A DNA stretch of 64,000 nt from Gammaproteobacteria bacterium. Lineage in GTDB: Bacteria > Pseudomonadota > Gammaproteobacteria > Eutrophobiales > Eutrophobiaceae. This document shows positions 38,688 to 62,308 of the stretch, in pieces. The translations under genes and the position numbers were made by a program. The notes beneath the pieces were generated by a model that saw only the letters and a list, made by a program, of their open reading frames with translations, was not told the DNA's origin and did not search any database. Within the stretch, counting starts at the first letter, position 1; every line of letters begins with the position of its first letter. Where the stretch lies: assembly GCA_965202685.1 (NCBI GenBank), contig OZ241853.1, forward strand, positions 133,333-197,332, in the 5' to 3' direction.

Positions 38688-38732
38688 CTTTTAGCTTGTT
38701 ACATCCGCCATCCTGCCTGGCGCGCCAACCAA

Positions 38733-38754
38733 GGCATAGCTTGGGGCAGGGCTT
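38733..38754. repeat. PAL element, truncated (left TIR only)
   Basis: ggcatagcttggggcagggctt followed by unrelated sequence. Confidence 0.5.
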
Positions 38755-38773
38755 ACTACTGGCCATTACCTAT

Positions 38774-38900
38774 TTTTTAGCGACGGAAGTTTTTCGTCAG
38801 GCAAGCGGCATGATGAGCGCGGGAGGGAGTGTATATTAAATACATGACCGACCGCGTGAAGAAATGCCGCGATGCATGGCGGAAAACTAACAAGCTAAAA
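38774..38900 (-). repeat. R unit, inverted, fused in-frame to paralogue 6
   Basis: ttttagcgacggaagtttttcgtcagg...gcatggcggaaaactaacaagctaaaa is directly joined to cgggcccgattccat of the gene. Confidence 0.7.
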
Positions 38901-40832: not shown

Positions 40833-40952
40833 CTTGTTAATTTTCCGCCATGCATCGCGGCGTTTCCTCGCTCGGTCAGTCATGTATCTGATATACACTC
40901 CTTCCCGCGCTCATCACGCCGCTTGCCTGACGAAAAATTTCCGTCGCTAAAA
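40827..40952 (+). repeat. R unit
   Basis: ttttagcttgttaattttccgccatgcatcgcggcgtttcctcgctcggtcag...ccgtcgctaaaa. A hybrid leader/R2 fragment follows it (40953-41075). Confidence 0.7.
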
Positions 40953-41090
40953 CACACTTGCAGGCTCCGTTATTTTGCCTGGCGCTTCCGCGTTCAGTCA
41001 GTCATGTGCTGTTTGCACACTCCTTCCTTCACTTGTCGCGCCAATTGCCTAACGAAAAACTTCCGTCGCTAAAAATGTTTAAGGGCATAG

Positions 41091-41216
41091 GCGTAGCTTG
41101 GGGTGGGGCTTTTAAGACCCTGCGCGGCCTGGATGGCCGCGCCGAGAGCGTCCAGGGATGGATTCACAGCGTGTCGTAAAAAGCCCCACCCCAAGCTAGG
41201 CCCTCGGGTGTCGCGC
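41091..41216 (+). repeat. PAL element copy 6
   Basis: gcgtagcttggggtggggcttttaagaccc...gtcgtaaaaagccccaccccaagctaggccctcgggtgtcgcgc. Confidence 0.8.
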
Positions 41217-41319
41217 TAGGCAAAATAGTGGAAAATTAACAAGCTAAAACTGACCGAGCGAGGAAACGCCGCGCCACATGGCGAAAGCTAACAAGCTAAA
41301 AGGGTAATATGGCGACATT

Positions 41320-43302: not shown

Positions 43303-43351
43303 CTTTTAGCTTGTTAGTTTTCCGTTATCCTTCCTGCGCGATCCTCGATGG

Positions 43352-43463
43352 CATAGCTTGGGGCAGGGCTTTTTACGACACGCTGTGAATCCATCCCTGG
43401 ACGCTCTCGGCGCGGCCATCCAGGCCGCGCAGGGTCTTAAAAGCCCTGCCCCCAAGCTACGCC
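43352..43463 (-). repeat. PAL element copy 7
   Basis: gcatagcttggggcagggctttttacgacacgctgtgaatcc...cccaagctacgcc. Confidence 0.8.
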
Positions 43464-43465
43464 CC

Positions 43466-43591
43466 TTTTAGCTTGTTAATTTTCCGCCATGCGGCGCGGC
43501 ATTTCTTCGCTCGGTCAGTCATGTATTTGATATACACTCCTTCCCTCGCTCATCATGCCGCTTGCCTGACGAAAAATTTCCGTCGCTAAAA
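43466..43591 (+). repeat. R unit
   Basis: ttttagcttgttaattttccgccatgcggcgcggcatttcttcgctcggtcag...ccgtcgctaaaa. Confidence 0.7.
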
Positions 43592-43674
43592 TAGTCGCGG
43601 GCTCCGTTATCCTGCCTGGCAAAAATTTCCGTCGCTAAAACACACTCGCAGGCTCCGTTATTTTGCCTAGCGCA

Positions 43675-43688
43675 TTGACCGCTATAAT
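43675..43688 (+). promoter_or_regulatory. TTGACCGCTATAAT promoter-like motif
   Basis: TATAAT at 43683-43688. ATG at 43695. Confidence 0.3.
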
Positions 43689-43694
43689 GGCGGC

Positions 43695-45695
43695 ATGGCG
43701 GCAACGATAAATCGCATTGGAGAACGGATCCGGTTCCATCGCTTAGCGTTGATTGCGGGCGCACTATTCTTAATCGTGGGCCTCGCCATCGTCGATGACT
43801 ACGGCGTCTCGCCGGATGCGGGAGACCAGTTTCTTATCACCATCGACACCCTCAACTATGTCCTGCATGGGAACCCAGGCGAGTTAGGAGTGCTTGCTCA
43901 CCGCTTCACTGGCGTCGCCTTCGAGGCGCCCCTGTTGCTGTTGATGGAATGGGTCCTGGGGCTGGAAGACCCGCGCCATATCTATTTAACCCGCCATGTC
44001 CTGATGCACCTGTTTTTTCTGCTTGGCGGGTTCTGTTGCTATCTGTTGGCGTTTCGCTTGTCCGGCGACCGGCTGGTCGCGCTGTTGGTCATGTTGCTGT
44101 TCCTGTTGTCCCCGCGCCTCTACGCCCATTCCTTCTTCAACAGCAAGGATCCGGTGGCTGCCAGCGCCTTCGTCATGGCCTTGCTCTTTGCGAGCCGCGC
44201 CTTTGACAAGGACTCCTTGGGGGCCTACCGGTGGTGCGGGGCAATGGCGGGACTTGTCGTCAACCTGCGCATCTTGGGCATCGCCCTGTTTGCCATCGTG
44301 TTGGTCTTTCAGGCCTGGGCCTGGTTCCAGGCCGGGGGGGGCGCGGCGCGCCGACAGGTGGCAACGGCCACTGGGGTTTTTGCCCTGTGGGGTGTCCTTG
44401 TCTTGTTCATCAGCCTGCCCTATCTCTGGGGCGACCCCGCAGGGCGGCTGGCGGAAATGGTCGCGATTATGCGCGATCATCCTACCGTTCATCGAGAATT
44501 GTTCCGGGGTCAAGTGTTTTCCAGCGCGGCGTTGCCTTGGGACTATATGTTGCGCTGGTTCGCCATCAGCCAGCCGCCGGTGACCTTGTTGTTGGGGTTG
44601 TTGGGCCTGGGAGCCTTGGGTCTCGCCGCTGGGGGCGTCGTCAGACGCGGCGCGGACGCCGGGCCGGGCGCGGCATGGGGCGCCGCCGAGTTGCGCTTCG
44701 GCGTCCTGCTCGCAACCTGCTTTGCGTTGCCCATGGTTGCCTTTGCGCTGTTGCGACCCACCTCCCTCACTGGCTGGCGGCATTTTTATTTCCTGCACGG
44801 GCCTTTTTGCCTGTTGGCGACCTTCGCCCTGATGAGGTTGCGCCAGCTGCCGGTTCGGGGGGTGCGAAAAGGATGGCTCGGCGGCGCGGCTTGCGCACTG
44901 ACGGCGGCGGGGCTGGGCGCGGCGGCGTTGGAGATGGCGCAGATCCATCCCCACCAATATCTTTATTTCAACTTTTTAGCGGACCGGAAGACCCCGGAAC
45001 GGTTGCGCGAGCGCTACGAGACAGATTACTGGAACATGGTGTTGCGACAGGGCTATGAATGGATCCTGAAAGAAACCCCGGAGGCCGCCATCAACATGAG
45101 GCCGCGGGGAGTTGATGCGTTGGCGGACATCAACCATAATGTGCAGATTCTCCCCCCGGCGGCCCGCAACCGCTTCACTTACGATCCGAAACGCGACCCG
45201 GATTTCTATTTAGGCGGAAGCGGAAGCGGAAACACAAACACAAGGCAAGGCCCCCTGCTCAAAGATCCTTTCCCTCCCGTTCTTCACCGGTTCAAGGTCT
45301 ATAACAACACGATGTTGACCGTGTCCACGCCGGATTTGTCCCGGGTTGACCCGGCGATGGCGGATACGTATCGGGCTTTGCATCGGGCGGCGACAGCAAG
45401 GGAACCGGCGGCCCGGGCGGGGGGCTTCGATGTGCACCTGCATGGCGACCGGCTGGCGTGGGTGAAGGAGGCTTGCGAGCCCGGGGCGCTGAGGCGCGAG
45501 TTCCGGCTGGCTCTTTACCCGGCGGACGCGAGCCTCTTGCTGGCCCATCACCAGAAACGGGGCTACTTTACAATCAGCGCCTCTGGGGTGCGATTTGACG
45601 GCAAGTGCCTGGGGGCGGCGCGGTTGCCGGACTTCGCCTTAACCCGGATTCGCCTGGGGCAACGAGGGAAGTGGGAAGTGGAGGTGCCGCTATAA
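43695..45695 (+). CDS. array paralogue 8 (666 aa)
   Basis: MAATINRIGERIRFHR... The stop TAA lies inside the TATAAT of the next copy (ccgcTATAAt). Confidence 0.75.
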   Translation: MAATINRIGERIRFHRLALIAGALFLIVGLAIVDDYGVSPDAGDQFLITIDTLNYVLHGNPGELGVLAHRFTGVAFEAPLLLLMEWVLGLEDPRHIYLTRHVLMHLFFLLGGFCCYLLAFRLSGDRLVALLVMLLFLLSPRLYAHSFFNSKDPVAASAFVMALLFASRAFDKDSLGAYRWCGAMAGLVVNLRILGIALFAIVLVFQAWAWFQAGGGAARRQVATATGVFALWGVLVLFISLPYLWGDPAGRLAEMVAIMRDHPTVHRELFRGQVFSSAALPWDYMLRWFAISQPPVTLLLGLLGLGALGLAAGGVVRRGADAGPGAAWGAAELRFGVLLATCFALPMVAFALLRPTSLTGWRHFYFLHGPFCLLATFALMRLRQLPVRGVRKGWLGGAACALTAAGLGAAALEMAQIHPHQYLYFNFLADRKTPERLRERYETDYWNMVLRQGYEWILKETPEAAINMRPRGVDALADINHNVQILPPAARNRFTYDPKRDPDFYLGGSGSGNTNTRQGPLLKDPFPPVLHRFKVYNNTMLTVSTPDLSRVDPAMADTYRALHRAATAREPAARAGGFDVHLHGDRLAWVKEACEPGALRREFRLALYPADASLLLAHHQKRGYFTISASGVRFDGKCLGAARLPDFALTRIRLGQRGKWEVEVPL

Positions 45696-45704
45696 TATGG
45701 CGGC

Positions 45705-47729
45705 ATGGCGGCAATGACAAATCGCATTGGAGAACGGGCCCGATTCCATAGTCTGGCACTGGTCGTGTGGTGCCTGTTTTTGATTACGGGCCTCGTCATC
45801 GTCGATGACTACGGCGTCTCGTGGGATACGGAAATCCAGCGTTTTGTCGCCATCAACACCGTCAACTATGTCCTGCATAGCGACCCTGCCCTGTTACACA
45901 ATGACGTTGATCACTTCTACGGCGCCGCCTTCGAGTTGCCCCTGTCCCTGTTGACGGAACGGATCCTGGGGCTAGAAGACCTGCGCCATGTCTATTTGGC
46001 CCGCTATGTCCTGACGCACCTGTTGTTTCTAATCGGCGGGTTCTGTTGCTATCTGTTGACGCGGCGCTTGTCCGGCGACCGGCTGATCGCGCTGTTAGTC
46101 ATGCTACTGTTCCTGCTGTCCCCGCGTCTTTACGCCCATTCCTTTTTCGACACCAAGGATGCGGTGTTCGCCAGCGCCTTCGTCATGGCCTTGCTCGTTG
46201 TGAGTTGCGCCTTTGACAGGGATTCGGTGGGGGCCTATCGGGGGTGCGGGGCGGCGGCGGGGCTTCTCATCAACCTGCGCATCATGGGCGTGGTTCTGTT
46301 TGCCGTCGTGTTGGTCTTTCGGACCTGGGCCTGGTTCCGGGCCGAGGGGAGCGCGGCGCGCCAACGGATTGTGGCGACCACTGGGGTCTTTGCCCTGTGG
46401 GGGGCCTTGTCTTTGTTCATCAGCCTGCCCTATCTCTGGGGCGACCCCGCAGGGCGTCTTTCAGAATATTGGATAGTGTCGGCCGACCATCCTAGCTACC
46501 ACGGCCACCAATTGTTCCGGGGTCAAGTGTTTTCCAGCGCGGCGTTGCCTTGGGATTATGTGTTGCACTGGTTCGTCATCAGCCAGCCGCCGGTGACCTT
46601 GTTGTTGGGTCTGTTGGGCCTAGTGGCCCTGGGCCTTGCCGCTGGGGGCGTCGTCAGACGCGGCGCAGGCGCCGGGCCGGGCGCGGCATGGGGCGCCGCC
46701 GAGTTGCGCTTCGGCGTCCTGCTGGCAACCTGCTTTGCGTTGCCCCTGGTTGCCTTTGTCCTGTTGCGGCCTAACACCATCAATGGCTGGCGGCATTTTT
46801 ATTTCCTGCACGGACCTTTTTGCCTGCTGGCGACCTTCGCCCTGATGGGGTTGCGCCAGCTGTCGGTTCGGGGGTTGCGAAAAGAATGGGTTGGCAGCGC
46901 GGCTTGCGCGCTGACGGCGGCGGGGCTGATCGTCGTGGCGGTCCAGGCGGGGCTGATCGTCGTGGCGGTCCAGATGGCGCGACTCCATCCCCATCAATAT
47001 CTCTATTTCAACTTCTTGGCGGACCGGAAGACCCCGGAACGGTTGCGCGAGCGCTACGAGATGGATTACTGGAACATGATGTGGCGACAGGGCTATGAGT
47101 GGCTCCTGAAAGAGACCCCGGAGGCCGCCATCAACATGAGGCCGCGGAGAGTTGATGCGTTGGCGAACATCAACCGCAATGTGCAGATCCTCGCCCCAGC
47201 GGCCCGCAACCGGTTCACCTACGACCCGAAACGCGACCCAGATTTCTATTTAGGCGGAAGCGGAAACACAAACACAAGGCAAAACCCCCTGCTCAAAGAT
47301 CCTTTCCCTCCCGTTCTTCACCGGTTCAAGGTCTATAACAACACGATGTTGACCGTGTCCACGCCGGATTTGTCCCGGGTTGACCCGGCGGTGGCGGATG
47401 AGTATCGGGCTTTGCATCGGGCGGCGACGGCGGGGGAACCGGCGGCGCGGGCGGGGGGCTTCGATGCGCACCTGCATGGCGACCGGCTGGCGTGGGTGAA
47501 GGAGGCTTGCGAGCCCGGGGCGCTGAGGCGCAAGTTCCAGCTGGCTCTTTACCCGGCGGACGCGGGCCGTTTGCCGGCCCAGCACCGGAAACGGGGCTAT
47601 TTTACAATCAGCGCCTCTGGGGTGCGGTTTGATGGCAAGTGCCTGGGGGCGGCGCGGTTGCCGGACTTCGCCCTAACCCGGATTCGCCTGGGGCAGCCAG
47701 GGAAGTGGGAAGTTGACATCCCCTTTTAG
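45705..47729 (+). CDS. array paralogue 9 (674 aa) with an in-frame 27-bp tandem duplication
   Basis: MAAMTNRIGERARFHS... The duplicated peptide is AGLIVVAVQ (46934-46987). Confidence 0.75.
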   Translation: MAAMTNRIGERARFHSLALVVWCLFLITGLVIVDDYGVSWDTEIQRFVAINTVNYVLHSDPALLHNDVDHFYGAAFELPLSLLTERILGLEDLRHVYLARYVLTHLLFLIGGFCCYLLTRRLSGDRLIALLVMLLFLLSPRLYAHSFFDTKDAVFASAFVMALLVVSCAFDRDSVGAYRGCGAAAGLLINLRIMGVVLFAVVLVFRTWAWFRAEGSAARQRIVATTGVFALWGALSLFISLPYLWGDPAGRLSEYWIVSADHPSYHGHQLFRGQVFSSAALPWDYVLHWFVISQPPVTLLLGLLGLVALGLAAGGVVRRGAGAGPGAAWGAAELRFGVLLATCFALPLVAFVLLRPNTINGWRHFYFLHGPFCLLATFALMGLRQLSVRGLRKEWVGSAACALTAAGLIVVAVQAGLIVVAVQMARLHPHQYLYFNFLADRKTPERLRERYEMDYWNMMWRQGYEWLLKETPEAAINMRPRRVDALANINRNVQILAPAARNRFTYDPKRDPDFYLGGSGNTNTRQNPLLKDPFPPVLHRFKVYNNTMLTVSTPDLSRVDPAVADEYRALHRAATAGEPAARAGGFDAHLHGDRLAWVKEACEPGALRRKFQLALYPADAGRLPAQHRKRGYFTISASGVRFDGKCLGAARLPDFALTRIRLGQPGKWEVDIPF

Positions 47730-47849
47730 CTTGTTAGTTTTCCGTTATCCTTCCTGGCGCTTCCGCGTTCAGTCAGTCATGTGCTGTTTGCACACTCCTT
47801 CCTTCACTTGTCGCGCCAGTTGCCTAACGAAAAACTTCCGTCGCTAAAA
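47724..47849 (+). repeat. R unit (R2 variant)
   Basis: ttttagcttgttagttttccgttatccttcctggcgcttccgcgttcagtcag...cgtcgctaaaa. Confidence 0.65.
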
Positions 47850-47912
47850 AGTGGTCAATGCGCCAGTTGCCTGACGGAAAATTTCCGTCGCTAAAAATGT
47901 TTAAGGGCATAG

Positions 47913-48038
47913 GCGTAGCTTGGGGTGGGGCTTTTAAGACCCTGCGCGGCCTGGATGGCCGCGCCGAGAGCGTCCAGGGATGGATTCACAGCGTGTCGTA
48001 AAAAGCCCCACCCCAAGCTAGGCCCTCGGGTGTCGCGC
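47913..48038 (+). repeat. PAL element copy 8
   Basis: Near-identical to copy 6. Confidence 0.8.
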
Positions 48039-48136
48039 TAGGCAAAATAGTGGAAAACTAACAAGCTAAAACTGACCGAGCGAGGAAACGCCGCGCCATA
48101 TGGCGGAAAATTAACAAGCTAAAATATAATGGCGGC

Positions 48137-50119
48137 ATGGCGGCAATGATAAATCGCATTAGAGAACGGGCCCGATTTCATAGTTTGGCACTGAGCGTGT
48201 GGGCCTTGTTTTTGATAGCGGGCCTCGCCATCGTCGATGACTACGGCGTCTCGTGGGATGCGGGAGCCCAGCGTGGCATCGCCCTCAGCACCCTCAACTA
48301 TGTCCTGCATGATGACCTAGGCCGGTTGCGATCGGTCATTGACCGCTTCTACGGCGTCGCCTTCGAGGCACCCCTGTTGCTGTTGACGGAACGGGTCCTG
48401 GGGCTGGAAGACCCGCGCCATGTCTATCTGACCCGCCATGTCCTGACGCACCTGTGGTTTCTAATTGGCGGGTTCTGTTGCTATCTGCTGGCGTTTCGAT
48501 TGTCTGGCGACCGGCTGGTCGCGCTGTTGGTCATGGCGCTGTTCCTGCTGTCCCCACGCCTGTACGCCCATTCCTTCTTCAACAGCAAGGACCCAGTGTT
48601 CGCCAGCGCCTTCGTCATGGCCCTGCTCGTTGTGAGCCGCGCCTTTGACAAGGACTCGGTGGGGGCCTATCGCTGGTGCGGGGCGGCAGCGGGGCTTCTT
48701 GTCAGCCTGCGCATCATGGGCGTGGTTCTGTTTGCCGCCGTGTTGGTCTTTCAGGCCTGGGCCTGGTTTCGGGCCGAGGGGGGCGCGGCGCGGCGGCGGG
48801 TGGCGGCGACCACTGGGGTCTTCGCCCTGTGGGGAATCGTTGTCTTGTTCATCAGTCTGCCCTACCTCTGGGGCGACCCCATAGGGCGGCTTTCAGAATA
48901 TTGGGTGGCGTTGACCGACCATCCTGACTACCACGGCCACCTATTGTTCTGGGGTCAGGCGTTTTCCGGCGGGGCGTTGCCTTGGGACCATGTGTTGCGC
49001 TGGTTCGCCATCAGCCAGCCGCCGGTGACCTTGTTGTTGGGATTGTTGGGCCTAGTGGCCCTGGGCCTTGCCGCTGGGGGCGTCGTCAGACGCGGCGCGG
49101 GCGCCGGGCCGGGCGCGGCATGGGGGGGGGGGGGCGAGTTGCGCTTCGGCGTCTTGCTCGCAACCTGTTTTGCGTTGCCCCTGCTCGCCTTTGTTCTGTT
49201 GCGGCCCACCACCCTCGTCGATAGCTGGCGGCATTTTTATTTCCTGCACGGGCCTTTTTGCCTGCTGGCGACCTTCGCCCTGATGGGGGTGCGTCAGCTG
49301 TCGGCGCGGGGGTTGCAAAGAAGATGGCTCGGCGGCGCGGCGTGCGCGCTGACAGCGGCGGGGCTAGGCGTCACGGCCTTTGAAATGGCGCAGATCCATC
49401 CTAACCAGCACCTCTATTTCAACTTTTTGGCGGACCGGAAGACCCCGGAACGGCTACAGGCCCGCCACACCGTGGATTACTCCCTGGCGATGCGACAGGG
49501 TTACGAATACCTGCTAAGACAAACCCCGGCCGCCGCCATTAACCTGGAAAAGAAACACTTCCTCACGAGACTCGTTGGGGGCATATTCATTCTTCCCGCG
49601 GCAGACCATCGCCGGTTCACCTACGACCGCAGTCGCGACCCGGATTTCTATTTCAGCGGAAGCGGAAACACAAGCGTAAAGATAAGCTTCCTGACCAAAG
49701 ATCCTTTCCCTCCCGTTCTTCACCAGTTCAAGGTCTATAACAACACCATGATGACCGTTTCCACGCCGGATTTGTCCCGGGTTGACCCGGCGGTGGCGAA
49801 TGAGTATCGGGCTTTGCATCGGGCGGCGACGGCGGGGGAACCGGTGACGCGGGAGAGCGGCTATGAAGTCCACCGGCACGGCTCGCGGCTGGCGTGGGTG
49901 AAGGAGGCTTGCGAGCCTGGGGAATTGATGCATCCGTTCCGGCTCAGGGTTTACCCGGCGGACGCGGGCCGTTTGCCTAGCGGGGGCTACTTCGGACTCA
50001 GCGTCCGCGGGGTGCGGTTTGATGGCAAGTGCCTGGGGGCGGCGTGGTTGCCGGACTTCGCCTTAACCCGGATTCGCCTGGGGCAATCAGGGAAGTGGGA
50101 AGCCGACATCCCCTTTTAG
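48137..50119 (+). CDS. array paralogue 10 (660 aa); contains a 13-nt G tract
   Basis: MAAMINRIRERARFHS... G13 at 49122-49134 is in frame (AWGGGGELRFG). Confidence 0.75.
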   Translation: MAAMINRIRERARFHSLALSVWALFLIAGLAIVDDYGVSWDAGAQRGIALSTLNYVLHDDLGRLRSVIDRFYGVAFEAPLLLLTERVLGLEDPRHVYLTRHVLTHLWFLIGGFCCYLLAFRLSGDRLVALLVMALFLLSPRLYAHSFFNSKDPVFASAFVMALLVVSRAFDKDSVGAYRWCGAAAGLLVSLRIMGVVLFAAVLVFQAWAWFRAEGGAARRRVAATTGVFALWGIVVLFISLPYLWGDPIGRLSEYWVALTDHPDYHGHLLFWGQAFSGGALPWDHVLRWFAISQPPVTLLLGLLGLVALGLAAGGVVRRGAGAGPGAAWGGGGELRFGVLLATCFALPLLAFVLLRPTTLVDSWRHFYFLHGPFCLLATFALMGVRQLSARGLQRRWLGGAACALTAAGLGVTAFEMAQIHPNQHLYFNFLADRKTPERLQARHTVDYSLAMRQGYEYLLRQTPAAAINLEKKHFLTRLVGGIFILPAADHRRFTYDRSRDPDFYFSGSGNTSVKISFLTKDPFPPVLHQFKVYNNTMMTVSTPDLSRVDPAVANEYRALHRAATAGEPVTRESGYEVHRHGSRLAWVKEACEPGELMHPFRLRVYPADAGRLPSGGYFGLSVRGVRFDGKCLGAAWLPDFALTRIRLGQSGKWEADIPF

Positions 50120-50239
50120 CTTGTTAGTTTTCCGTTATCCTGCCTGGCGCTTCCGCGTTCAGTCAGTCATGTATTTGATATACACTCCTTCCCTCACTTG
50201 TCGCGCCAGTTGCCTGACGAAAAATTTCCGTCGCTAAAA
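50114..50239 (+). repeat. R unit (R/R2 hybrid)
   Basis: ttttagcttgttagttttccgttatcctgcctggcgcttccgcgttcagtcagtcatgtatttgatatacactcc...gctaaaa. Confidence 0.65.
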
Positions 50240-50295
50240 CACACTTGCAGGCTCGGTTATTTTGCCTGGCGTATTGACCGCTATAATATGGCGGC

Positions 50296-52300
50296 ATGGC
50301 GGCAACGATAAATCGCATTGGAGAACGGGCCAGATTCCATAGTCTGGCACTGATCGTGTGCGCCTTGTTTTTGATGACGGGCCTCGCCATCGTCGATGAC
50401 TACGGCATCTCGCCGGATACGAAAATCCAGCGCCTTATCGCCCTCAGCACCCTCAACTATGTCCTGCAAGACGACCCAGGCCGGTTGCGAATGCTCGCTG
50501 ACCGCTTCTACGGCGCCGCCTTCGAGGCGCCCCTGTTCCTGTTGACGGAACGGGTCCTGGGGCTGGAAGACCCACGCCATGTCTATTTGGCCCGCCATGT
50601 CCTGACGCACCTGTTGTTTCTAATCGGCGGGTTCTGTTGCTATCTGCTGGCGTTTCGATTGTCCGGCGACCGGCTGGCCGCGCTGTTGGTCATGTTGCTG
50701 TTCCTGCTGTCCCCGCGCCTGTACGCCCATTCCTTCTTCAACAGCAAGGATGCGGTGTTCGCCAGCGCCTTCGTCATGGCCTTGCTCTTTGCGAGCCGCG
50801 CCTTTGACAGGGACTCGTTGGGGGCCTATCGGTGGTGCGGGGCAATGGCAGGACTTCTCGTCAACCTGCGCATCATGGGAGTGGTTCTGTTTGCCATCGT
50901 GTTGGTCTTTCGGGCCTGGGCCTGGTTTCGGGCCGAGGGGGGCGCGGCGCGGCGGCGGGTGGCGGCGACCGCTGGGGTCTTTGCCCTGTGGGGGGGCCTT
51001 GTCTTGTTCATCAGCCTGCCCTATCTCTGGGGCGATCCCGCAGGGCGTCTGGGGGAATATTGGATGGCGTTGGCCGACCATCCTACCCACCGCTTCCGCC
51101 TATTGTTTCGGGGTCAGGCGGTTTCCAGCGCGGCGTTGCCTTGGGACTATGTGTTGCGCTGGTTCGCCATCAGCCAGCCCCTCGTGACCCTGTTGTTGGG
51201 TCTGCTGGGCCTGGGGGCCTTGGGCCTTGCCGCTGGGGGCGTCGTCAGACGCGGCGCGGACGCCGGGCCTGGACCGGGCGCGGCATGGGGGGGGGGGGGG
51301 GGGGGGGGAGTTGCGCTTCGGCATTCTGCTGGCAACCTGTTTTGCGTTGCCCCTGGTTGCCTTTGTTCTGTTGCGGCCCAACACCTCCGATGACTGGCGG
51401 CATTTTTATTTCCTGCACGGGCCTTTTTGCCTGCTGGCGACCTTCGCCCTGATGAGGTTGCGCCAGCTGCCGGCGCGGGGGTTGCAAAGAAGATGGCTCG
51501 GCGGCGCGGCCTGCGCGCTGACGGCGGTGGGACTAGGCATCACGACCTTTGAAATGGCGCAGATCCATCCTAACCAGCATCTCTATTTCAACCCATTAGT
51601 GGACCGGAAAACCCCGGAACGGCTACGGGCCCGCTACACCATGGATTACTACATGGCGATGCGGCAGGGTTATGAATACCTACTAAGACAAGGTCCGACC
51701 GCCGCCATTAACCTGGAAAAGAAATACTTCCTCTCGAGACTCGTTTATGGCATATTCATTCTTCCCGCGGCAGACCATCGCTGGTTCACCTACGACCGCA
51801 GTCGCGACCCGGACTTCTATTTAAGCGGAAGCGGAAACACAAGCATAAAGTTAAGCTTTCTGCCCAAAGATCCTTTCCCTCCCGTTCTTCACCGGTTCAA
51901 GGTCTATAACAACACCATGTTGATCGTATCCACGCCGGATCTGTCCCGGGTTGACCCGGCGGTGGCGGATGAGTATCGGGCTTTGCATCGGGCGGCGACA
52001 GCGGGGACGCCGGCGGCCCGGGCGGGGGGCTTCGATGTACACCTGCATGGCGACCGGCTGGCGTGGGTGAAGGAGGCTTGCGAGCCTGGGGAATTGATGT
52101 CGCCATTCCGGCTCAGGCTTTACCCGGCGGACGCGGGCCGTTTGCCGAACCATCTCCGGAAACAGGGTTACTTTGCAATCAGCGCCTTTGGGGTGCGGTT
52201 TGACGACAAGTGCCTGGGGGCGGCGCGGTTGCCGGATTTCGCCCTGACCCGGATTCGCCTGGGGCAACAAGGGAGATGGGAAGTTGAGGTCCCCTTTTAG
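50296..52300 (+). pseudogene. array paralogue 11, frameshifted at a 22-nt G tract (phase-OFF copy or sequencing artefact)
   Basis: ORFs 50296..51393 and 51227..52300 are the two halves of one paralogue, offset by a frameshift at G22 (51287-51308). It has an intact promoter motif tattgaccgctataat. Confidence 0.6.
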
Positions 52301-52301
52301 C

Positions 52302-52427
52302 TTTTAGCTTGTTAGTTTTCCGCCATGCGTCCTGGCGTTTCTTTGCTCGGGCGGTCATGTGCTATTTGCACACTCCCTTCCTCGCTCATCACGCCAGTTG
52401 CCTGACGAAAAACTTCCGTCGCTAAAA
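52302..52427 (+). repeat. R unit (first of two near-identical tandem copies)
   Basis: tagttttccgccatgcgtcctggcgtttctttgctcgggcggtcatgtgctatttgcacactccc...gctaaaa. Preceded by a 2x TTTTAGC microsatellite. Confidence 0.7.
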
Positions 52428-52430
52428 TGG

Positions 52431-52548
52431 TTGTAGTTTTCCGCCATGTGGCGCGGCGTTTCTTTGCTCGGGCGGTCATGTGCTATTTGCACACTCCCTT
52501 CCTCGCTCATCACGCCAGTTGCCTGACGAAAAACTTCCGTCGCTAAAA
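52431..52548 (+). repeat. R unit (second tandem copy); R fragments follow to 52690
   Basis: Near-identical to 52302-52427. Confidence 0.7.
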
Positions 52549-52693
52549 TGGTTGTAGTTTTCCGCCATGTGGCGCGGCGTTTCCTCGCTCGGTCAGTTTT
52601 AGCTCGTTAGTTTTCCGTTATCCTTCCTGGCGCTTCCGCGTTCAGTCAGTTTAGCTTGTTACATCCGCCATGCGTCTTGGCGGCCAAACTAGG

Positions 52694-52805
52694 GCGTAGC
52701 TTGGGGCAGGGCTTTTAAGACCCTGCGCGGCCCGGATGGCCGCGCCGAGAGCGTCCAGGGATGGATTTACAGCGTGTCGCAAAAGGCCCTGCCCCAAGCT
52801 ACACC
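52694..52805 (+). repeat. PAL element copy 9
   Basis: gcgtagcttggggcagggcttttaagaccc...gtcgcaaaaggccctgccccaagctacacc. Confidence 0.8.
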
Positions 52806-52807
52806 CC

Positions 52808-52930
52808 TTTTAGCTTGTTACATCCGCCATGCATCGCGGCGTTTCTTCACGCGGTCGGTCATGTATTTGACATACACTCCCTCCCGCGCTCATCACGCCG
52901 CTTGCCTGACGAAAAATTTCCGTCGCTAAA
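52808..52930 (+). repeat. R unit
   Basis: ttttagcttgttacatccgccatgcatcgcggcgtttcttcacgcggtcggtcatgtatttgacatacactccc...gctaaaa. Confidence 0.7.
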
Positions 52931-52965
52931 ACACACTTGCAGGCTCGGTTATTTTGCCTGGCGCA

Positions 52966-52979
52966 TTGACCGCTATAAT
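52966..52979 (+). promoter_or_regulatory. TTGACCGCTATAAT promoter-like motif
   Basis: TATAAT at 52974-52979. ATG at 52986. Confidence 0.3.
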
Positions 52980-52985
52980 GGCGGC

Positions 52986-54983
52986 ATGTTTGCAATGACA
53001 AACCCCATTGGAGAACGGATCCGGTTCCATCGCTTAGCGTTGATCGCATGCGCCCTATTCCTGATTACGGGCCTCGCCATCGTCGATGACTACGGCGTCT
53101 CTGTAGATACGGTGGGGCAGCGTCGCATCACCATCAACACCGTCAACTATGTCCTGCATGACGACCCAAGCCTGTTGCAAGTGCAGGCTGACCGCTTCTA
53201 CGGCGTCGCCTTCGAGTTGCCCCTGCTTCTGTTGACGAAACGGGTCCTGGGGCTGGAAGACCCGCGCCATGTCTATTTGGCCCGCCATGTCCTGACGCAC
53301 CTGTTGTTTCTAATCGGCGGGTTCTGTTGCTATCTGCTGGCGTTTCGATTGTCCGGCGACAGGCTGATCGCGCTGTTGGTCATGTTGCTGTTCCTGCTGT
53401 CCCCGCGCCTGTACGCCCATTCCTTTTTCAACAGCAAGGATGCGCCGTTCGCCAGCGTCTTCGTCATGGCCTTGCTCTTTGCGAGCCGCGCCTTTGACAA
53501 GGACTCGGTGGGGGCCTATCGGTGGTGCGGGGCAATAGCGGGACTTCTCGCCCACCTGCGCATCATGGGCGTGGTTCTGTTTGCCGTCGTGTTGGTCTTT
53601 CGGGCCTGGGCCTGGTTCCGGGCCGAGGGGGGCGCGGCGCGGCGGCGGGCGGCGGCGACCACTGGGGGCTTTGCCCTGTGGGGGGGCCTTGTCTTGTTCA
53701 TCAGCCTGCCCTATCTCTGGGGCGACCCCGCAGGGCGGCTGGCGGAAATGCCAGCGGTACTGAGCGATCATCCCATTGCCTCTTATGAGTTGTTCAAGGG
53801 ACAAGTGTTTCCGAGCGTGGCGTTGCCTTGGGACTATGTGTTGCGCTGGTTCGCCATCAGCCAGCCGCCGGTGACCTTGTTGTTGGGCCTGTTGGGCCTA
53901 GTGGCCTTGGGCCTTGCCGCTCAGGGCGTCGTCGGACGCGGCGCGGGCGCCCGGCCGGGCGCGGCATGGGGGGGCGCCGAGTTGCGCTCCGGCGGCCTGC
54001 TTGCGGCCTGCTTTGTTCTGCCTATGGCCGCTTTTGTTTTGTTGCGACCCGGCACCGGTGATGGCTGGCGGCATTTCTATTTTCTGCACGGGCCTTTTTG
54101 CCTGCTGGCGACCTTCGCCCTGATGGGAATGCGCCAGCTGGCGGCGCGGGGGTTGCGAAAAGAATGGGTGGGCGGCGCGGCTTGCGCGCTGACAGCGGCG
54201 GGGCTGGGCGTTGCGGCCCTTGAAATGGCGCAGATCCATCCTAACCAGCACCTTTATTTCAACTTTTTTGTGGACCGGAAAACCCCGGAACGGCTAAACG
54301 AACGCTACGAGACGGATTACTGGGACATGATGTTGCGGCAAGGGTATGAACACATCCTGCGACGAGAGCCTGCTTCCATCATTAACATGAGGCGGCGCCA
54401 GGTTCACTTGTGGGCGGACATCAACCGCAATGTGCGGATTCTCCCGGCGACGGCCCGCAACCGGTTCACCTACGACCCCAGCCGCGACCTGGATTTCTAC
54501 TTGGGCGGAAGCCCGGAGAGAAGCTTCCTGCCCAGAGATCCTTTCCCCCCCGTTATCCATCGGATCAAGGTCTATAACAACACGATGTTGACCGTATTCA
54601 CGCAGGATTTGTCCCGGGTTGACCCGGCGGTGGCGGATAAATATCGGGCTTTGCATCGGGCGGCGACGGCGGGGGTGCCGACGGCCCGAGGGGGGGGGTT
54701 CGATGTGCACCTGCATGGCGACCGGCTGGCGTGGGTGAAGGAGGCTTGCGAGCCAGGGGCACTGAAGCGTGAGTTCCTGCTCAAGCTTTATCCGGCGGAC
54801 CCGGGCCGTTTGCCAGAATCTCGCCGGCGCTGGGGCTACTTCGAACTCGGCGCCCGCGGGGTGCGGTTTGACGGCAAGTGCCTGGGGGCGCGACGACTGC
54901 CGGACTTCGCCCTGGCCCGGATTCGCCTGGGGCAGTCTGCTTCTGGCGGAGGGGCAGTGTGGGAAACCGACATCCACTTTTAG
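52986..54983 (+). CDS. array paralogue 12 (665 aa from ATG 52986; ORF open from 52761)
   Basis: MFAMTNPIGERIRFHR... Its C-terminal domain type is shared with paralogues 13 and 14. Confidence 0.75.
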   Translation: MFAMTNPIGERIRFHRLALIACALFLITGLAIVDDYGVSVDTVGQRRITINTVNYVLHDDPSLLQVQADRFYGVAFELPLLLLTKRVLGLEDPRHVYLARHVLTHLLFLIGGFCCYLLAFRLSGDRLIALLVMLLFLLSPRLYAHSFFNSKDAPFASVFVMALLFASRAFDKDSVGAYRWCGAIAGLLAHLRIMGVVLFAVVLVFRAWAWFRAEGGAARRRAAATTGGFALWGGLVLFISLPYLWGDPAGRLAEMPAVLSDHPIASYELFKGQVFPSVALPWDYVLRWFAISQPPVTLLLGLLGLVALGLAAQGVVGRGAGARPGAAWGGAELRSGGLLAACFVLPMAAFVLLRPGTGDGWRHFYFLHGPFCLLATFALMGMRQLAARGLRKEWVGGAACALTAAGLGVAALEMAQIHPNQHLYFNFFVDRKTPERLNERYETDYWDMMLRQGYEHILRREPASIINMRRRQVHLWADINRNVRILPATARNRFTYDPSRDLDFYLGGSPERSFLPRDPFPPVIHRIKVYNNTMLTVFTQDLSRVDPAVADKYRALHRAATAGVPTARGGGFDVHLHGDRLAWVKEACEPGALKREFLLKLYPADPGRLPESRRRWGYFELGARGVRFDGKCLGARRLPDFALARIRLGQSASGGGAVWETDIHF

Positions 54984-54997
54984 CTTTTAGCTTTTAG
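54977..54997 (+). repeat. 3x tandem TTTTAGC heptanucleotide at the stop codon
   Basis: cacTTTTAGCTTTTAGCTTTTAGCttgttag. Other copies carry 1 or 2 units. Confidence 0.8.
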
Positions 54998-55163
54998 CTT
55001 GTTAGTTTTCCGTTATCCTGCTTGGCGCGCCAACCAGGGCATAGCTTGTTACATCCGCCATGCGGCGCGGCATTTCTTTGCGCGGTCAGTCATGTATTTG
55101 ATATACACTCCCTCCCGCGCTCATCATGCCGCTTGCCTGACGAAAAACTTCCGTCGCTAAAAA

Positions 55164-57176
55164 ATGGTCAATTCACCGCTTGCAGGGCGGAAAACTAACA
55201 AGCTAAAACGGGCCCGATTCCATAGTTTGGCACTGCTCGTGTGGTCCCTGTTCCTGATAGCGGGCCTCGCCATCGTCGATGACTACGGCGTCTCGATAGA
55301 TACGGAAAACCAGCATCTTAACGCCCTCAGCACTCTCAACTATGTCCTGCATGACGACCTAGGCCGGTTCCGAGTGGCCGCTGACCGCTTCTACGGCGCC
55401 GCCTTCGAGTTGCCCCTGCTTCTGTTGACGGAACGGGTCCTGGGGCTGGAAGACTCGCGCCATGTCCATTTAGCCCGCCATGTCCTGACGCACTTGTTTT
55501 TTCTGCTTGGCGGGTTCTGTTGCTATCTGTTGGCGCGGCGCTTGTCCGGCGACCGGCTGATCGCGCTGTTGGTCATGTTGCTGTTCCTGCTGTCTCCGCG
55601 TCTTTACGCCCATTCCTTCTTCAACAGCAAGGATGCGGTGTTCGCCAGCGCCTTCGTCATGGCCTTGCTCTTTGTGTGTCGCGCCTTTGACAGGGACTCG
55701 TTGGGGGCCTATCGGTGGGGCGGCGCGGCGGCGGGGCTTCTCATCAACCTGCGCATCATGGGCGTGGTTCTGTTTGCCGCCGTGTTGCTCTTTCGGGCTT
55801 GGGCCTGGTTTCGGGCCGAGGGGTGCGCGCCGCAACGACGGATTGTGGCGACCACTAGCGTCTTCGCCCTGTGGGGGGGCCTTGTCTTGTTCATCAGCCT
55901 GCCCTACCTCTGGGATGACCCAGTAGGGCGGCTGGCGGAAATGGTCATGGCGTTGGCCGATCATCCTATCGTTCTTCATGAATTATTCCGGGGGCAAGTG
56001 TTTTCCAGCGCGGCGTTGCCTTGGGATTATGTGTTGCGCTGGTTCGCCATCAGCCAGCCGCCGGTGACCTTGTTGTTGGGACTGTTGGGCCTAGTGGCCC
56101 TGGGCCTTGCCGCTGGAGGCGTCGTCAGACGCGGCGCGGGCGCCGGGCCGGGCGCGGCGTGGGGGGCCGCCGAGTTGCGCTTCGGCATCCTGCTGGCAAC
56201 CTGCTTTGCATTGCCCCTAGTTGCCTTTGTTCTGTTGCGGCCCAATGCCTACCAGGGCTGGCGGCATTTTTATTTCCTGCACGGGCCTTTTTGCCTGTTG
56301 GCGACCTTCGCCCTGATGGGGTTGCGCCAGCTGTCGGCGCGGGGGTTGCAAAGAAGATGGGTTGGCGGCGCGGCTTGCGCGCTGACAGCGGCGGGGCTGG
56401 GCGTCGTGGTTGTCCAGATGGCGCGACTCCATCCTAACCAATATCTCTATTTCAACTTTTTTGTGGACCGAAAAACTCCGGAATGGCTAAACGAACGCTA
56501 CGAGACGGATTACTGGGACATGATGTTGCGGCAAGGGTATGAACACATCCTGCGACGAGGGCCTGCTTCCATCATTAACATGAGGCGGCGCCAGGTTATC
56601 TTGTGGGATGACATCAACCGCAATGTGCAGATCCTCCCGGCGGCGGCCCGGAGCCGGTTCACCTATGACCCCAGTCGCGACCTGGATTTCCACTTGGGCG
56701 GAAGCCCGGAGAGAAGCTTCTTGCCCAGAGATCCTTTCCCCCCCGTTATCCATCGGATCAAGGTCTATAACAACACGATGTTGACCGTATTCACGCAGGA
56801 TTTATCCCGGGTTGACCCGGCGGTGGCGGATGAATATCGGGCTTTGCATCGGGCGGCGACGGCGGGGGAGCCGGCGGCCCGGGCGGGGGGCTTTGATGTG
56901 CACCTGCATGGCGACCGGCTGGCGTGGGTGAAGGAGGCTTGCGAGCCAGGAGAATTGTTGTTTCCGTTCTGGCTCGCGTTTTACCCAGTGGACGCGGGCC
57001 GTTTGCCAGAATCTCGCCGGCGATGGGGCTACTTCGAACTCGGCGCCCGCGGGGTGCGGTTTGACGGCAAGTGCCTGGGAGCGCGACGACTGCCGGACTT
57101 CGCCCTAGCCCGGGTGCGCCTGGGGCAACATGCTCCTAGTGGGGAGGTGCTATGGGAAGCCGACATCCCCTTTTAG
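55164..57176 (+). CDS. array paralogue 13, 5'-end replaced at the same junction as paralogue 6
   Basis: MVNSPLAGRKTNKLK | RARFHS. The junction is gctaaaa|cgggcccgattccat at 55208/55209. Confidence 0.55.
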   Translation: MVNSPLAGRKTNKLKRARFHSLALLVWSLFLIAGLAIVDDYGVSIDTENQHLNALSTLNYVLHDDLGRFRVAADRFYGAAFELPLLLLTERVLGLEDSRHVHLARHVLTHLFFLLGGFCCYLLARRLSGDRLIALLVMLLFLLSPRLYAHSFFNSKDAVFASAFVMALLFVCRAFDRDSLGAYRWGGAAAGLLINLRIMGVVLFAAVLLFRAWAWFRAEGCAPQRRIVATTSVFALWGGLVLFISLPYLWDDPVGRLAEMVMALADHPIVLHELFRGQVFSSAALPWDYVLRWFAISQPPVTLLLGLLGLVALGLAAGGVVRRGAGAGPGAAWGAAELRFGILLATCFALPLVAFVLLRPNAYQGWRHFYFLHGPFCLLATFALMGLRQLSARGLQRRWVGGAACALTAAGLGVVVVQMARLHPNQYLYFNFFVDRKTPEWLNERYETDYWDMMLRQGYEHILRRGPASIINMRRRQVILWDDINRNVQILPAAARSRFTYDPSRDLDFHLGGSPERSFLPRDPFPPVIHRIKVYNNTMLTVFTQDLSRVDPAVADEYRALHRAATAGEPAARAGGFDVHLHGDRLAWVKEACEPGELLFPFWLAFYPVDAGRLPESRRRWGYFELGARGVRFDGKCLGARRLPDFALARVRLGQHAPSGEVLWEADIPF

Positions 57177-57177
57177 C

Positions 57178-57294
57178 TTTTAGCTTGTTAGTTTTCCGTT
57201 ATCCTTCCTGGCGCTTCCGCGTTCAGTCAGTCATGTGCCATTGCGCACACTCCTTCCTTCACTTGTCGCGCCAGTTGCCTAACGAAAAACTTCC
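57178..57294 (+). repeat. R unit (R2 variant, truncated end)
   Basis: Follows a 2x TTTTAGC repeat at 57171-57184. Confidence 0.6.
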
Positions 57295-57375
57295 GTCGCT
57301 AAATGCTCGTCATGCCGCTTGCCTGACGAATGTTCCGTCATGCTTCGTGGATGGACAGGAAGATGAGGTGGAATG

Positions 57376-57488
57376 GGCCTAGCTTGGGGGCGGGCTTTTA
57401 AGACCCTGTGCGGCCTGGATGGCCGCACCGAGAGCGTCCAGGGATGGATTCACAGCGTGTCGTAAAAAGCCCGCCCCCAAGCTAGGCC
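57376..57488 (+). repeat. PAL element copy 10
   Basis: gcctagcttgggggcgggcttttaagaccc...gtcgtaaaaagcccgcccccaagctaggcc. Confidence 0.8.
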
Positions 57489-57549
57489 CTGGTTGGCGCA
57501 CTAGGACGCAGGGCGGAAAACTAACAGGCCAAAAAGGTAATATGGCGGC

Positions 57550-59535
57550 ATGGCGGCAATGACAAATCGCATTGGAGGATGGGCCCGGTTCCATCGCTTA
57601 GCATTAATTGCCTGCGCCCTGTTCCTCCTTGCGGGTCTCGCCATCGTCGATGACTATGGCGTTACGATAGACACAACCTCTCAACGGGCTATCGCCCTCA
57701 GCACCCTCAACTATGTCCTGCATGACGACCCAGGCCGGTTGCGAGTGGTCGTTGACCGCTTCTACGGCGCCGCCTTCGAGTTGCCCCTGTTCCTGTTGAC
57801 GGAACGGGTCCTGGGGCTGGAAGACCCGCGCCATGTCTATTTGGCCCGCCATGTCCTGACGCACCTGTTTTTTCTAATCGGCGGGTTCTGTTGCTATCTG
57901 TTGGCGTTTCGATTGTCCGGCGACCGGCTGGCGGCGCTGTTGGTCATGGCGTTGTTTCTCTTGTCCCCGCGCATCTACGCTCATTCCTTCTTCAACAGCA
58001 AGGATCCGGTGGCTGCCAGCGCCTTCGTCATGGCCTTGCTCGTTGTGTGTCGCGCCTTTGACAAGGACTCGGTGGGGGCCTATCGGTGGTGCGGGGCAAT
58101 GGCGGGACTTGTCGTCAACCTGCGCATCTTGGGCATCGCCCTGTTTGCCGTCGTGTTGGTCTTTCAGGCCTGGGCCTGGTTCCGGGCCGGGGGGGGCGCG
58201 GCGCGGCGGCGGGTTGTAGTGACCACTGGCGCTTTCGCCCTGTGGGGAATCGTTGTCTTGTTCATCAGCCTGCCCTATCTCTGGGGCGACCCCGCAGGGC
58301 GGCTGGCGGAAATGGTCGAGATTATGCGCGATCATCCTACCGTTTATCTGGTATTGTTCCGGGGGCAGGTGTTTTCCGGCGCGGCGTTGCCTTGGGACTA
58401 TATGTTGCGCTGGTTCGCCATCAGCCAGCCGCCGGTGACCTTGTTGTTGGGGCTGTTGGGCCTAGTGGCCCTGGGCCTTGCCGCCAGGGGCGTCGTCAGA
58501 CGCGGCGCAGGCGCCGGGCCCGGGCCGGGCGCGGCGTGGGGCGCCGCCGAGTTGCGCCTCGGCATATTGCTCGCAACCTGCTTTGCGTTGCCCCTGGTTG
58601 CCTTTGCGCTGTTGCGACCCACCTCCCTCAATGACTGGCGGCATTTTTATTTCTTGCACGGGCCTTTTTGCCTGCTGGCGACCTTCGCCCTGATGGGGTT
58701 GCGCCAGCTGCCGATGCGGGAGGCGCAAAGAAGATGGCTCGGCGGCGCGGCGCGCGCACTGACGGCGGCTGGGCTGGGCGTCGTGGCGGTCCAGATGGCG
58801 CAGATCCATCCTAACCAGCATCTCTATTTCAACTTTTTTGTGGATCGGAAGACCCCGGAACGGTTGCGCGAGCGCTACGAGACGGATTACTGGGACATGA
58901 TGTTGCGGCAAGGTTATGAACACATCCTGCGACGAGAGCCTGCTTCCATCATTAACATGAGGCCGCGAGAGCTTGACTGGGCGTCCATCAACCGCAATGT
59001 GCAGATTCTCCCGGCGGCGGCCCGCAAACGGTTCACTTATGACCGCAGTCGCGACCTGGATTTCTACCTGGGAGGAAGCCCGGAGAAAAGCTTCCTGCCC
59101 AGAGATCCTTTCCTCCCCGTAATCCATCGGATCAAGGTCTATAACAACACGATGTTGACCGTATCCACGCCGGATTTGTCCCGAGTTGACCCGGCGGTGG
59201 CGGAGGCGTATCGGGCTTTGCATCGGGCGGCGACGGCGGGGGAACCGGTGGCTCGCGGGGGGGGCTTCAATGTGCACCTGCATGGCGACCGGCTGGCGTG
59301 GGTGAAGGAGGCTTGCGAGCCTGGGGAATTGTTGTTTCCGTTCCGACTCGCGTTTTACCCAGTGGACGCGAGCCGGTTGCCGAAACCACGCCGCAACTGG
59401 GGATACTTCGAACTCGACGCCCGCGGGGTGCGGTTTGACGGCAAGTGCCTGGGGGCGCGACGACTGCCGGACTTCGCCCTGGCCCGCGCGCGTTTGGGGC
59501 AACCGGGGAGATGGGAAGTTGACATCCCCTTTTAG
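57550..59535 (+). CDS. array paralogue 14 (661 aa)
   Basis: MAAMTNRIGGWARFHR... Its central ~1 kb is near-identical to paralogue 4. Confidence 0.75.
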   Translation: MAAMTNRIGGWARFHRLALIACALFLLAGLAIVDDYGVTIDTTSQRAIALSTLNYVLHDDPGRLRVVVDRFYGAAFELPLFLLTERVLGLEDPRHVYLARHVLTHLFFLIGGFCCYLLAFRLSGDRLAALLVMALFLLSPRIYAHSFFNSKDPVAASAFVMALLVVCRAFDKDSVGAYRWCGAMAGLVVNLRILGIALFAVVLVFQAWAWFRAGGGAARRRVVVTTGAFALWGIVVLFISLPYLWGDPAGRLAEMVEIMRDHPTVYLVLFRGQVFSGAALPWDYMLRWFAISQPPVTLLLGLLGLVALGLAARGVVRRGAGAGPGPGAAWGAAELRLGILLATCFALPLVAFALLRPTSLNDWRHFYFLHGPFCLLATFALMGLRQLPMREAQRRWLGGAARALTAAGLGVVAVQMAQIHPNQHLYFNFFVDRKTPERLRERYETDYWDMMLRQGYEHILRREPASIINMRPRELDWASINRNVQILPAAARKRFTYDRSRDLDFYLGGSPEKSFLPRDPFLPVIHRIKVYNNTMLTVSTPDLSRVDPAVAEAYRALHRAATAGEPVARGGGFNVHLHGDRLAWVKEACEPGELLFPFRLAFYPVDASRLPKPRRNWGYFELDARGVRFDGKCLGARRLPDFALARARLGQPGRWEVDIPF

Positions 59536-59606
59536 CTTGTTACATCCGCCATGCATCGCGGCATTTCTTCACTCGGTCAGTCATGTATTTCATGCACACT
59601 CCTTCC

Positions 59607-59733
59607 TTTTTAGCTTGTTAGTTTTCCGCCATGCGTCCTGGCGTTTCTTTGCTCGGGCGGTCATGTGCTATTTGCACACTCCCTTCCTCGCTCATCACGC
59701 CAGTTGCCTGACGAAAAACTTCCGTCGCTAAAA
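59607..59733 (+). repeat. R unit
   Basis: Near-identical to 33812-33937. Preceded by a partial R (59530-59600). Confidence 0.7.
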
Positions 59734-59787
59734 TGGTTGCGGGATAACGGAAAACTAACAAGCTAAAAGGGATGACGGGGTGCATAG

Positions 59788-59899
59788 GCGTAGCTTGGGG
59801 GTGGGCTTTTAAGACCCTGTGCGGCCCGGATGGCCGCACCGAGAGCGTCCAGGGATGGATTCACAGCGTGTCGTAAAAAGCCCGCCCCCAAGCTAGGCC
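59788..59899 (+). repeat. PAL element copy 11
   Basis: Near-identical to copy 10. Confidence 0.8.
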
Positions 59900-59960
59900 C
59901 TGGTTGGCGCACTAGGACGCAGGGCGGAAAACTAACAGGCCAAAAAGGTAATATGGCGGC

Positions 59961-61967: not shown

Positions 61968-62087
61968 CTTGTTAGTTTTCCGCCATGCGTCCTGGCGTTT
62001 CCTCGCTCAGCCAGTCATGTATGTGACATACACTCCCGCCCTCGCTCCTCACGCCAGTTGCCTGACGAAAAACTTCCGTCGCTAAAA
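61962..62087 (+). repeat. R unit; R2 hybrid and fragments follow to about 62260
   Basis: ttttagcttgttagttttccgccatgcgtcctggcgtttcctcgctcagccagtcatgtatgtgacatacactcccgccc...gctaaaa. Confidence 0.7.
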
Positions 62088-62308
62088 CACACTTGCAGGC
62101 GCCGTTATCCTGCCTGGCGCTTCCGCGTTCAGTCAGTCATGTGCCATTACGCACACTCCTTCCTTCACTTGTCGCGCCAGTTGTCTAACGAAAAATTTCC
62201 GTCGCTAAAACAGTGGTCAATGCGCCAAGTTGCCTGACGAAAAATTTCCGTCGCTAAAATGGTTGCGGGTAACGGAAAGCTAACAAGTTAAAAGGGTAAT
62301 ATGGCGGC

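Follow-up and report, generated by a model that had tools for sequence, protein, structure and literature searches.

We describe here a run of 22 consecutive G residues in the eleventh member (c11) of a tandem gene array, found in a 64,000-nucleotide (nt) stretch of contig OZ241853.1 from a gammaproteobacterium; this whole stretch is referred to below as the window. As written in the assembly, the run puts the two halves of c11 one reading frame apart. Comparison of the run with its counterparts in the same array and in related assemblies indicated that the poly-G site is probably a genuine slippage-prone repeat, which makes c11 a candidate phase-variable glycosyltransferase gene. We lean toward the view that the site is a real slippage switch and that OFF states such as the G22 form of c11 do occur in nature. 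The features on which the analysis centers are as follows, all on the forward (+) strand.

51287..51308, +: G22 homopolymer, which puts c11 out of frame as written; G21 or G24 would be in frame.
50296..52300, +: c11, a GT-C/PMT_2-like membrane glycosyltransferase gene, with an N-terminal open reading frame (ORF) of 365 amino acids (aa) and a C-terminal frame running from the tract to the stop at 52300.
51268..51273, +: 6-nt in-frame insertion CCTGGA in the Gly/Pro-rich loop of c11, placed by paralogue alignment.
48137..50119, +: c10, the intact 660-aa upstream neighbor of c11, equal to database protein P0004 except for the called start, and the copy on which the AlphaFold2 (AF2) model was built.
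49122..49134, +: G13 homopolymer of c10 at the homologous loop position, in frame (AAWGGGGELRF) and followed by CGAG.
27532..64000, +: the head-to-tail paralogue array, about 660 aa per copy, with at least 16 copies, 15 of them complete.

The c11 tract lies inside the coding region at codon ~331 of 668, and is bordered by GCGCGGCAT on its 5' side and AGTTGCGCTTCGG on its 3' side. Two ORFs, 50296..51393 (365 aa) and 51227..52300 (357 aa), overlap at G22 and are offset from each other by one frame, in agreement with a preliminary description of this DNA, which had reported that a 22-nt poly-G at these positions frameshifts paralogue 11. That description had the tract itself right, and the letters before it wrong: the sequence reads cggcat and then G22, not cggcatg and then G22. 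When the tract was edited to G21, G24 or G18, a single c11 ORF without internal stop was obtained in each case (667, 668 and 666 aa, respectively), so that G22 is the sole lesion in the ~2 kb of this gene. As written, then, c11 would specify a truncated 365-aa product, and it stands one G away from an in-frame state (G21).

Neither the length nor the location of the tract is readily ascribed to chance. In dinucleotide-preserving shuffles, G runs of 13 or more were expected 0.07 times per window, and the observed count was not attained in any of 100 shuffles. The earlier argument that the tract is far too long to have arisen by chance is thus upheld, although the G+C content cited with it, 65%, is corrected here to 62% for the window. 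The only homopolymers in the window longer than 9 nt are G22 of c11 and G13 of c10 (49122-49134), and the paralogue alignment places the latter at the codon position homologous to the former. Bacteria seldom have homopolymers of more than 10 nt, and just 1% of the genomes surveyed contain more than one per 100 kb (PMC9262707); two such runs within 64 kb, at homologous sites, therefore constitute a meaningful local signal. Both runs also exceed the homopolymer length of about 8 or more within an ORF that is looked for in slipped-strand loci.

A nucleotide alignment of the 15 complete paralogues showed that most copies read GGGGCGCCGCCGAG (W-G-A-A-E) at the tract site, as had been claimed from first inspection, and that c12 and c6 have G7 there. 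Fourteen of the 15 are intact, c11 being the exception. Glycine codons in the paralogues are GGG in 39% of cases and GGC in 47%; the seven consecutive GGG codons of the tract thus point to expansion at the nucleotide level. We also considered selection for poly-glycine as such, and rejected it, as the tract uses GGG codons exclusively. The same Gly/Pro-rich loop carries a further irregularity: where c11 has CCTGGA, c4 and c14 have a comparable 6-nt GPG duplication, and on the alignment this 6-nt element is a second length-variable element of the loop.

With the repaired c11 protein as query, we recovered more than 1400 homologues, and compared the tract region in three further assemblies: L001 (ENA ERZ25068319, a 2,972,662-bp contig), L122 (ERZ25070167, ctg385734_5.88x_l) and L123. 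At least two of these have contig names of long-read style, one at 5.88x coverage, and the scaffold name of L123 suggests a short-read assembly. The closest relative is P0001 (88% identity), which is encoded on L001; the L001 orthologues of c12 to c15 are 96-99% identical to those of the window. At the c11 position, the L001 gene reads G17-AGC-GAG and is in frame. This gene combines c11-like with c10-like segments in a mosaic, a pattern suggestive of gene conversion. L122 contains three tract-bearing paralogues, with G16 in frame (P0003), G19 in frame in a copy 93% identical to c11 in nucleotide sequence, and G21 out of frame. The G21 copy was called as two fragments of 391 and 280 aa, and either G19 or G22 restores an ORF of 671 or 672 aa, so that here too the tract is the only lesion. 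In L123 the tract is interrupted (G7-A-G6-AGC) and in frame.

Over the four assemblies, the tract lengths at this site all differ from one another (13, 16, 17, 19, 21 and 22, plus the interrupted G7AG6), with one tract-bearing copy in L001, two in the window and three in L122. Genes that are ~92-93% identical in nucleotide sequence differ in tract length within each lineage: G13 versus G16 for c10, and G22 versus G19 versus G17 for c11. Repeat number therefore varies between conserved flanks. In c11 and in the L122 G21 copy, moreover, tract length decides between a full-length and a truncated product.

All homopolymers of 10 nt or more that we observed in ~100 kb (64 kb of the window, 22 kb of L001 and 14 kb of L122) fall at this one loop codon position. 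Comparison of the window with L001 along 9.3 kb of orthologous array showed 262 substitutions but no more than 10 gaps. Gene frames and G7-G9 runs were unaffected by any of these gaps, whereas the loop tract measures 22 nt in the window and 17 nt in L001. The C-terminal region of c12 contains a G9 run (54690-54698) that has the same length in the L001 orthologue (14183-14191); this internal control shows that runs of lesser length are stable and are called consistently. Recurrence of the tract at one codon position, with shorter runs unchanged, argues that it is real and site-specific. An origin in the poly-G read tails of two-colour Illumina sequencing was considered and rejected: the tract is internal, it has homologous coding sequence on both sides, and it recurs in L001, L122 and, in interrupted form, L123.

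A JGI metagenome scan with a two-anchor pattern gave 10 chance matches and none in the glycosyltransferase family. A scan of public-genome contigs for GCGGCRT followed by G12 gave at least 120 unrelated matches, with none in the glycosyltransferase family among the matches listed. Of those listed, 68 of 120 lay within 150 nt of a locus end, which is consistent with surviving two-colour read-tail artefacts. Additional OFF alleles were sought with the two out-of-frame tail peptides, and this search returned only P0122, from an assembly at 3x coverage that is rich in frameshifts; it also missed the 391-aa product of L122 itself, a probable reason being that clustering at 90% conceals truncated alleles, and its negative outcome is therefore weak. 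The assembly that encodes P0122 (L134; ENA ERZ26050812, ctg20913_3x_l) contains the glycosyltransferase family as many fragments of 67-405 aa. P0122 leaves its frame and re-enters it ~24 residues further on, an example of how the noise of low-coverage long reads mimics frameshifts.

The ratio of nonsynonymous to synonymous substitution (dN/dS; Nei-Gojobori) for repaired c11 was 0.37-0.64 against L001-G17, L122-G19, L122-G16 and c10, and it was no higher downstream of the tract than upstream. There is thus no sign of decay or relaxed selection in the out-of-frame part.

The paralogues are, on the structural model, membrane glycosyltransferases of the GT-C fold that resemble ArnT and PMT_2 proteins. 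Matches to the Pfam family PMT_2 were borderline, at 27.4 bits for the N-terminal c11 fragment (cut-off 26.1) and only 21.2 bits for c10; the cut-off was passed by 9 of 10 diverse remote relatives, at 27-41 bits. A profile built from 46 family members matched 6661 representatives of 50%-identity clusters (E <= 1e-3). When AF2 was given close homologues alone, the predicted local distance difference test (pLDDT) score was 41, and a diverse alignment of 66 sequences was used instead for the c10 model. This model (pLDDT 91.4; predicted TM-score, pTM, 0.92) consists of ~11 long helices and, after them, a C-terminal domain of mixed alpha/beta structure. In a Foldseek comparison of the model with the PDB, ranks 1-35 were all GT-C enzymes, the best match being ArnT 5F15 (probability 1.0, E = 1.8e-5), followed by AftA, EmbA/B, STT3/PglB, ALG9/3/12, DPY19 and Pmt4. 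A sequence-profile search of the PDB with the glycosyltransferase family gave no matches, an NCBIfam search with the paralogues gave no match, and tblastn against plasmids gave a single weak match.

A DD motif lies directly after the first transmembrane helix (TM1), within IVDDYG. Among 46 close homologues D34 never varies and D35 is conserved in at least 90%, and D35, Y36 and G37 still reach at least 90% conservation among 66 diverse ones. GT-C enzymes carry an acidic motif at the matching position, within the first extracytoplasmic loop after TM1, and a catalytic role may be proposed for the DD pair. By analogy with other members of the class, the paralogues would use a lipid-linked sugar donor. 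The likeness of the c10 model to ArnT (4-amino-arabinose transferase; 5F15/5EZM) and to AftA, EmbA/B, PglB/STT3 and PMT thus extends over fold, PMT_2 matches and the acidic motif after TM1; in contrast, sequence identity to these structures is only 9-16%, and TM-scores are ~0.4-0.5. We know of no solved GT-C enzyme of the ArnT set with a coding homopolymer switch.

The tract encodes part of the c10 loop at residues 321-332, which joins the helices at 296-320 and 333-355. This loop, RRGAGAGPGAAWGGGGELR, flanked by RR...R, belongs to the two 10-residue blocks of lowest confidence in the AF2 model (mean pLDDT 63). The helix count from a cytoplasmic N-terminus, together with the positive-inside rule, predicts that the loop is probably cytoplasmic. 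A flexible inter-helix loop of this kind should, on the model, tolerate in-frame changes in tract length. A frameshift at the tract, on the other hand, removes the last three helices and the ~240-residue C-terminal domain, which is probably periplasmic. A separate observation concerns that domain: some distant relatives (among P0124, P0128, P0207, P0233 and P0245) have lengths of 900-1850 aa and match the last ~100 residues of the family profile (~550-655) 5-10 times, so that a small beta-rich C-terminal module is tandemly repeated in other lineages.

These observations are, in our view, best explained by the following scheme. A G tract would have grown in the c10/c11 sub-lineage of the tandem GT-C family, within the codons of the flexible loop. 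Slipped-strand mispairing at replication would then alter its length. A change of 3 nt would add or remove one glycine in a tolerant loop and leave the gene ON; a change of ±1 or ±2 would shift the frame, so that the product ends at residue 365 and the gene is OFF. Since long homopolymers are known to be unstable, we infer that switching takes place, and it would presumably be frequent and reversible within a population. By analogy, switching may also change a surface glycan, and such a change might be useful, for example against phage or grazers. The site has the anatomy of a contingency locus: a coding repeat, frame toggling, length polymorphism, ON as well as OFF lengths in genes that are otherwise intact, and an enzyme of a glycan-making class.

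Several observations weigh against a switch, and most of these also favor its chief competitor, in which a homopolymer was miscounted, the true c11 tract is in frame (G21 most simply, or G24), and c11 is intact and ordinary. We regard this as possible and worth serious attention, if on the doubtful side. The two out-of-frame tracts, 21 and 22 nt, are the two longest, just as a miscount that depends on length would produce. Of the 6 uninterrupted tracts, 4 are in frame, a proportion that does not significantly exceed the one-third expected at random (binomial P ~0.10). In c11, ±1 suffices for a perfect ORF free of other defects, and ±1 likewise repairs the L122 copy. That copy holds the only other out-of-frame tract (G21), and belongs to an assembly whose name is of long-read style and whose coverage is just 5.88x; in L134, a sister assembly at 3x, frameshifts abound, and many of them are spurious. 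Constraint downstream of the c11 tract looks normal, and the other 14 complete paralogues are all intact. R10.4 consensus can be trusted only where homopolymers stay below 11 nt, and those of 10 nt or more remain difficult for nanopore consensus (PMC9262707). A miscount does not sit easily, however, with the otherwise clean comparison of the window and L001, where no frame-breaking indels or G7-G9 differences were seen over 9.3 kb, nor with the in-frame calls at G13, G16, G17 and G19, which show that long tracts are not miscalled as a rule. Like c11, documented long-read homopolymer indel errors consist of a one-base discrepancy in a long run that makes a gene with no other fault look frameshifted (PMC9262707); unlike c11, such errors explain a count and not the existence of a tract, and 13-22 G recur at the same codon across assemblies. 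A miscount would therefore explain the frame state only, and a real G21 would stay hypermutable. The position of the tract at mid-gene, rather than near the 5' end as in classic contingency genes, also counts against a switch.

The mid-gene position could equally be cited, along with the lack of any evident regulatory logic, for an irreversible recent pseudogenisation, in which slippage knocked out one redundant copy that is now decaying and has no switching role. Redundancy is certainly high in this family, with at least 16 copies. Yet no second lesion was found in the 2 kb of c11, dN/dS downstream of the tract equals that upstream, and the L001 and L122 orthologues are intact with other tract lengths. 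In addition, quick reversion is to be expected of a 22-nt run, which makes irreversible loss implausible while the tract persists. We accordingly consider this reading very improbable. A different proposal, which is compatible with the others and to which we attach the least probability of all, is that RNA polymerase slippage on the tract puts some transcripts in frame, so that the gene is leaky and not OFF. In its favor, a 22-nt run is longer than the RNA:DNA hybrid. Bacterial RNA polymerase does slip on homopolymers, as documented for A/T runs of ~7 or more (PMC6260861); the cited work covers A/T runs only, however, and we found none for G runs.

Two readings were put forward in the preliminary description, an ON/OFF switch and an error of sequencing. 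The substrate that a switch would need has good support, through recurrence at the same codon, differing lengths, in-frame and out-of-frame states in otherwise intact genes, and the GT-C class of the product; an error may still lie in the exact count, 22 as against 21 or 24.

The nearest precedents for a slippage switch of this type are in Neisseria, where the lgt enzymes are soluble or peripheral proteins of the GT-A/GT-B type and the tracts are usually near the 5' end. In c11, by contrast, the tract is in a mid-gene inter-helix loop of an 11-helix GT-C membrane protein, within a 62% G+C genome that has meta-cleavage and dehalogenase-like genes. Neisseria is also a host-restricted pathogen in which switching has been demonstrated experimentally, whereas c11 is a candidate switch known from its sequence. 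A second precedent, Salmonella gtrABC, involves phase-variable O-antigen glucosylation by the membrane protein GtrC, with several gtr clusters per genome and effects on phage susceptibility; there the switch is epigenetic (Dam/OxyR at the promoter) and does not involve a coding repeat, and the genes are not known to form a 16-copy tandem array. What c11 shares with Neisseria lgtA, lgtC and lgtD is a coding poly-G in a glycosyltransferase gene clustered with paralogues, truncation by ±1 changes, and tract lengths that vary between strains; poly-G tracts in glycosyltransferase genes are described there as an established mechanism of phase variation, for the lgt locus (PMC2191774) and for the Neisseria phasome (PMC5953494).

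Coding poly-G switches in glycosyltransferase genes are, in short, already textbook. Less usual here are the GT-C membrane class, the mid-gene loop, the array of at least 16 copies with mosaic members, and the environmental-looking genome. If switching is real, the known range of glycosyltransferase phase variation by coding repeats would widen in three respects, as the enzyme is of the integral-membrane GT-C class, the repeat lies in a loop at mid-gene, and the genes form a large tandem array in a bacterium with no look of host adaptation. Contingency loci would then shape surface glycans in environmental populations too, with phage pressure as an obvious candidate for the cause. A more ambitious proposal is that, in a free-living and probably environmental bacterium, gene conversion shuffles segments within the array of at least 16 GT-C genes and carries a self-expanding poly-G switch from one copy to others. 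Stochastic ON/OFF switching of single transferases would then give a combinatorial, heritable but reversible repertoire of surface glycans that serves as bet-hedging against phage or predators, and this would fall outside the host-adapted pathogens in which contingency loci of this sort are known; taken whole, we think this rather unlikely. For annotation there is a warning in either case: 'pseudogenes' frameshifted at homopolymers of more than 10 nt in long-read genomes are not safe to take at face value, in either direction.

The array itself may be more unusual than the poly-G tract. Its paralogues are 73-77% identical to c10, and its most variable stretches are in the C-terminal domain, at roughly c10 residues 470-520, where the consensus shows runs of x. 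A 16th paralogue begins near 62309 and runs past the end of the window. An Rfam search of the window gave no match.

Upstream of the array, on the reverse (-) strand, positions 14269-27169 contain a DUF1329/DUF1302/MMPL/BNR cluster and then an aromatic meta-cleavage set, comprising a DmpG-like aldolase, an acetaldehyde dehydrogenase, three FAA-hydrolase-family proteins, an aldehyde dehydrogenase and a glutathione S-transferase (GST). At 11367-13724, also on the reverse strand, is a 785-aa ORF whose C-terminal part matches NCBIfam TIGR02486, reductive dehalogenase (194.6 bits against a cut-off of 160.35); its long N-terminal extension gave no match in NCBIfam. This gene content suggests a free-living degrader of aromatic compounds with an environmental-looking genome.

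Repeat modules of ~121-126 nt are present in the spacers between paralogues, for the most part dispersed in both orientations, and are found also in L001; they may be REP/MITE-like elements, promoter modules or substrates for recombination. Examples are at 52313-52554, 27350-27475, 31682-31807, 40827-40952, 43465-43591 and 61960-62087. The first of these is a tandem pair, 52313-52433 and 52434-52554, whose two members are 97% identical to each other.

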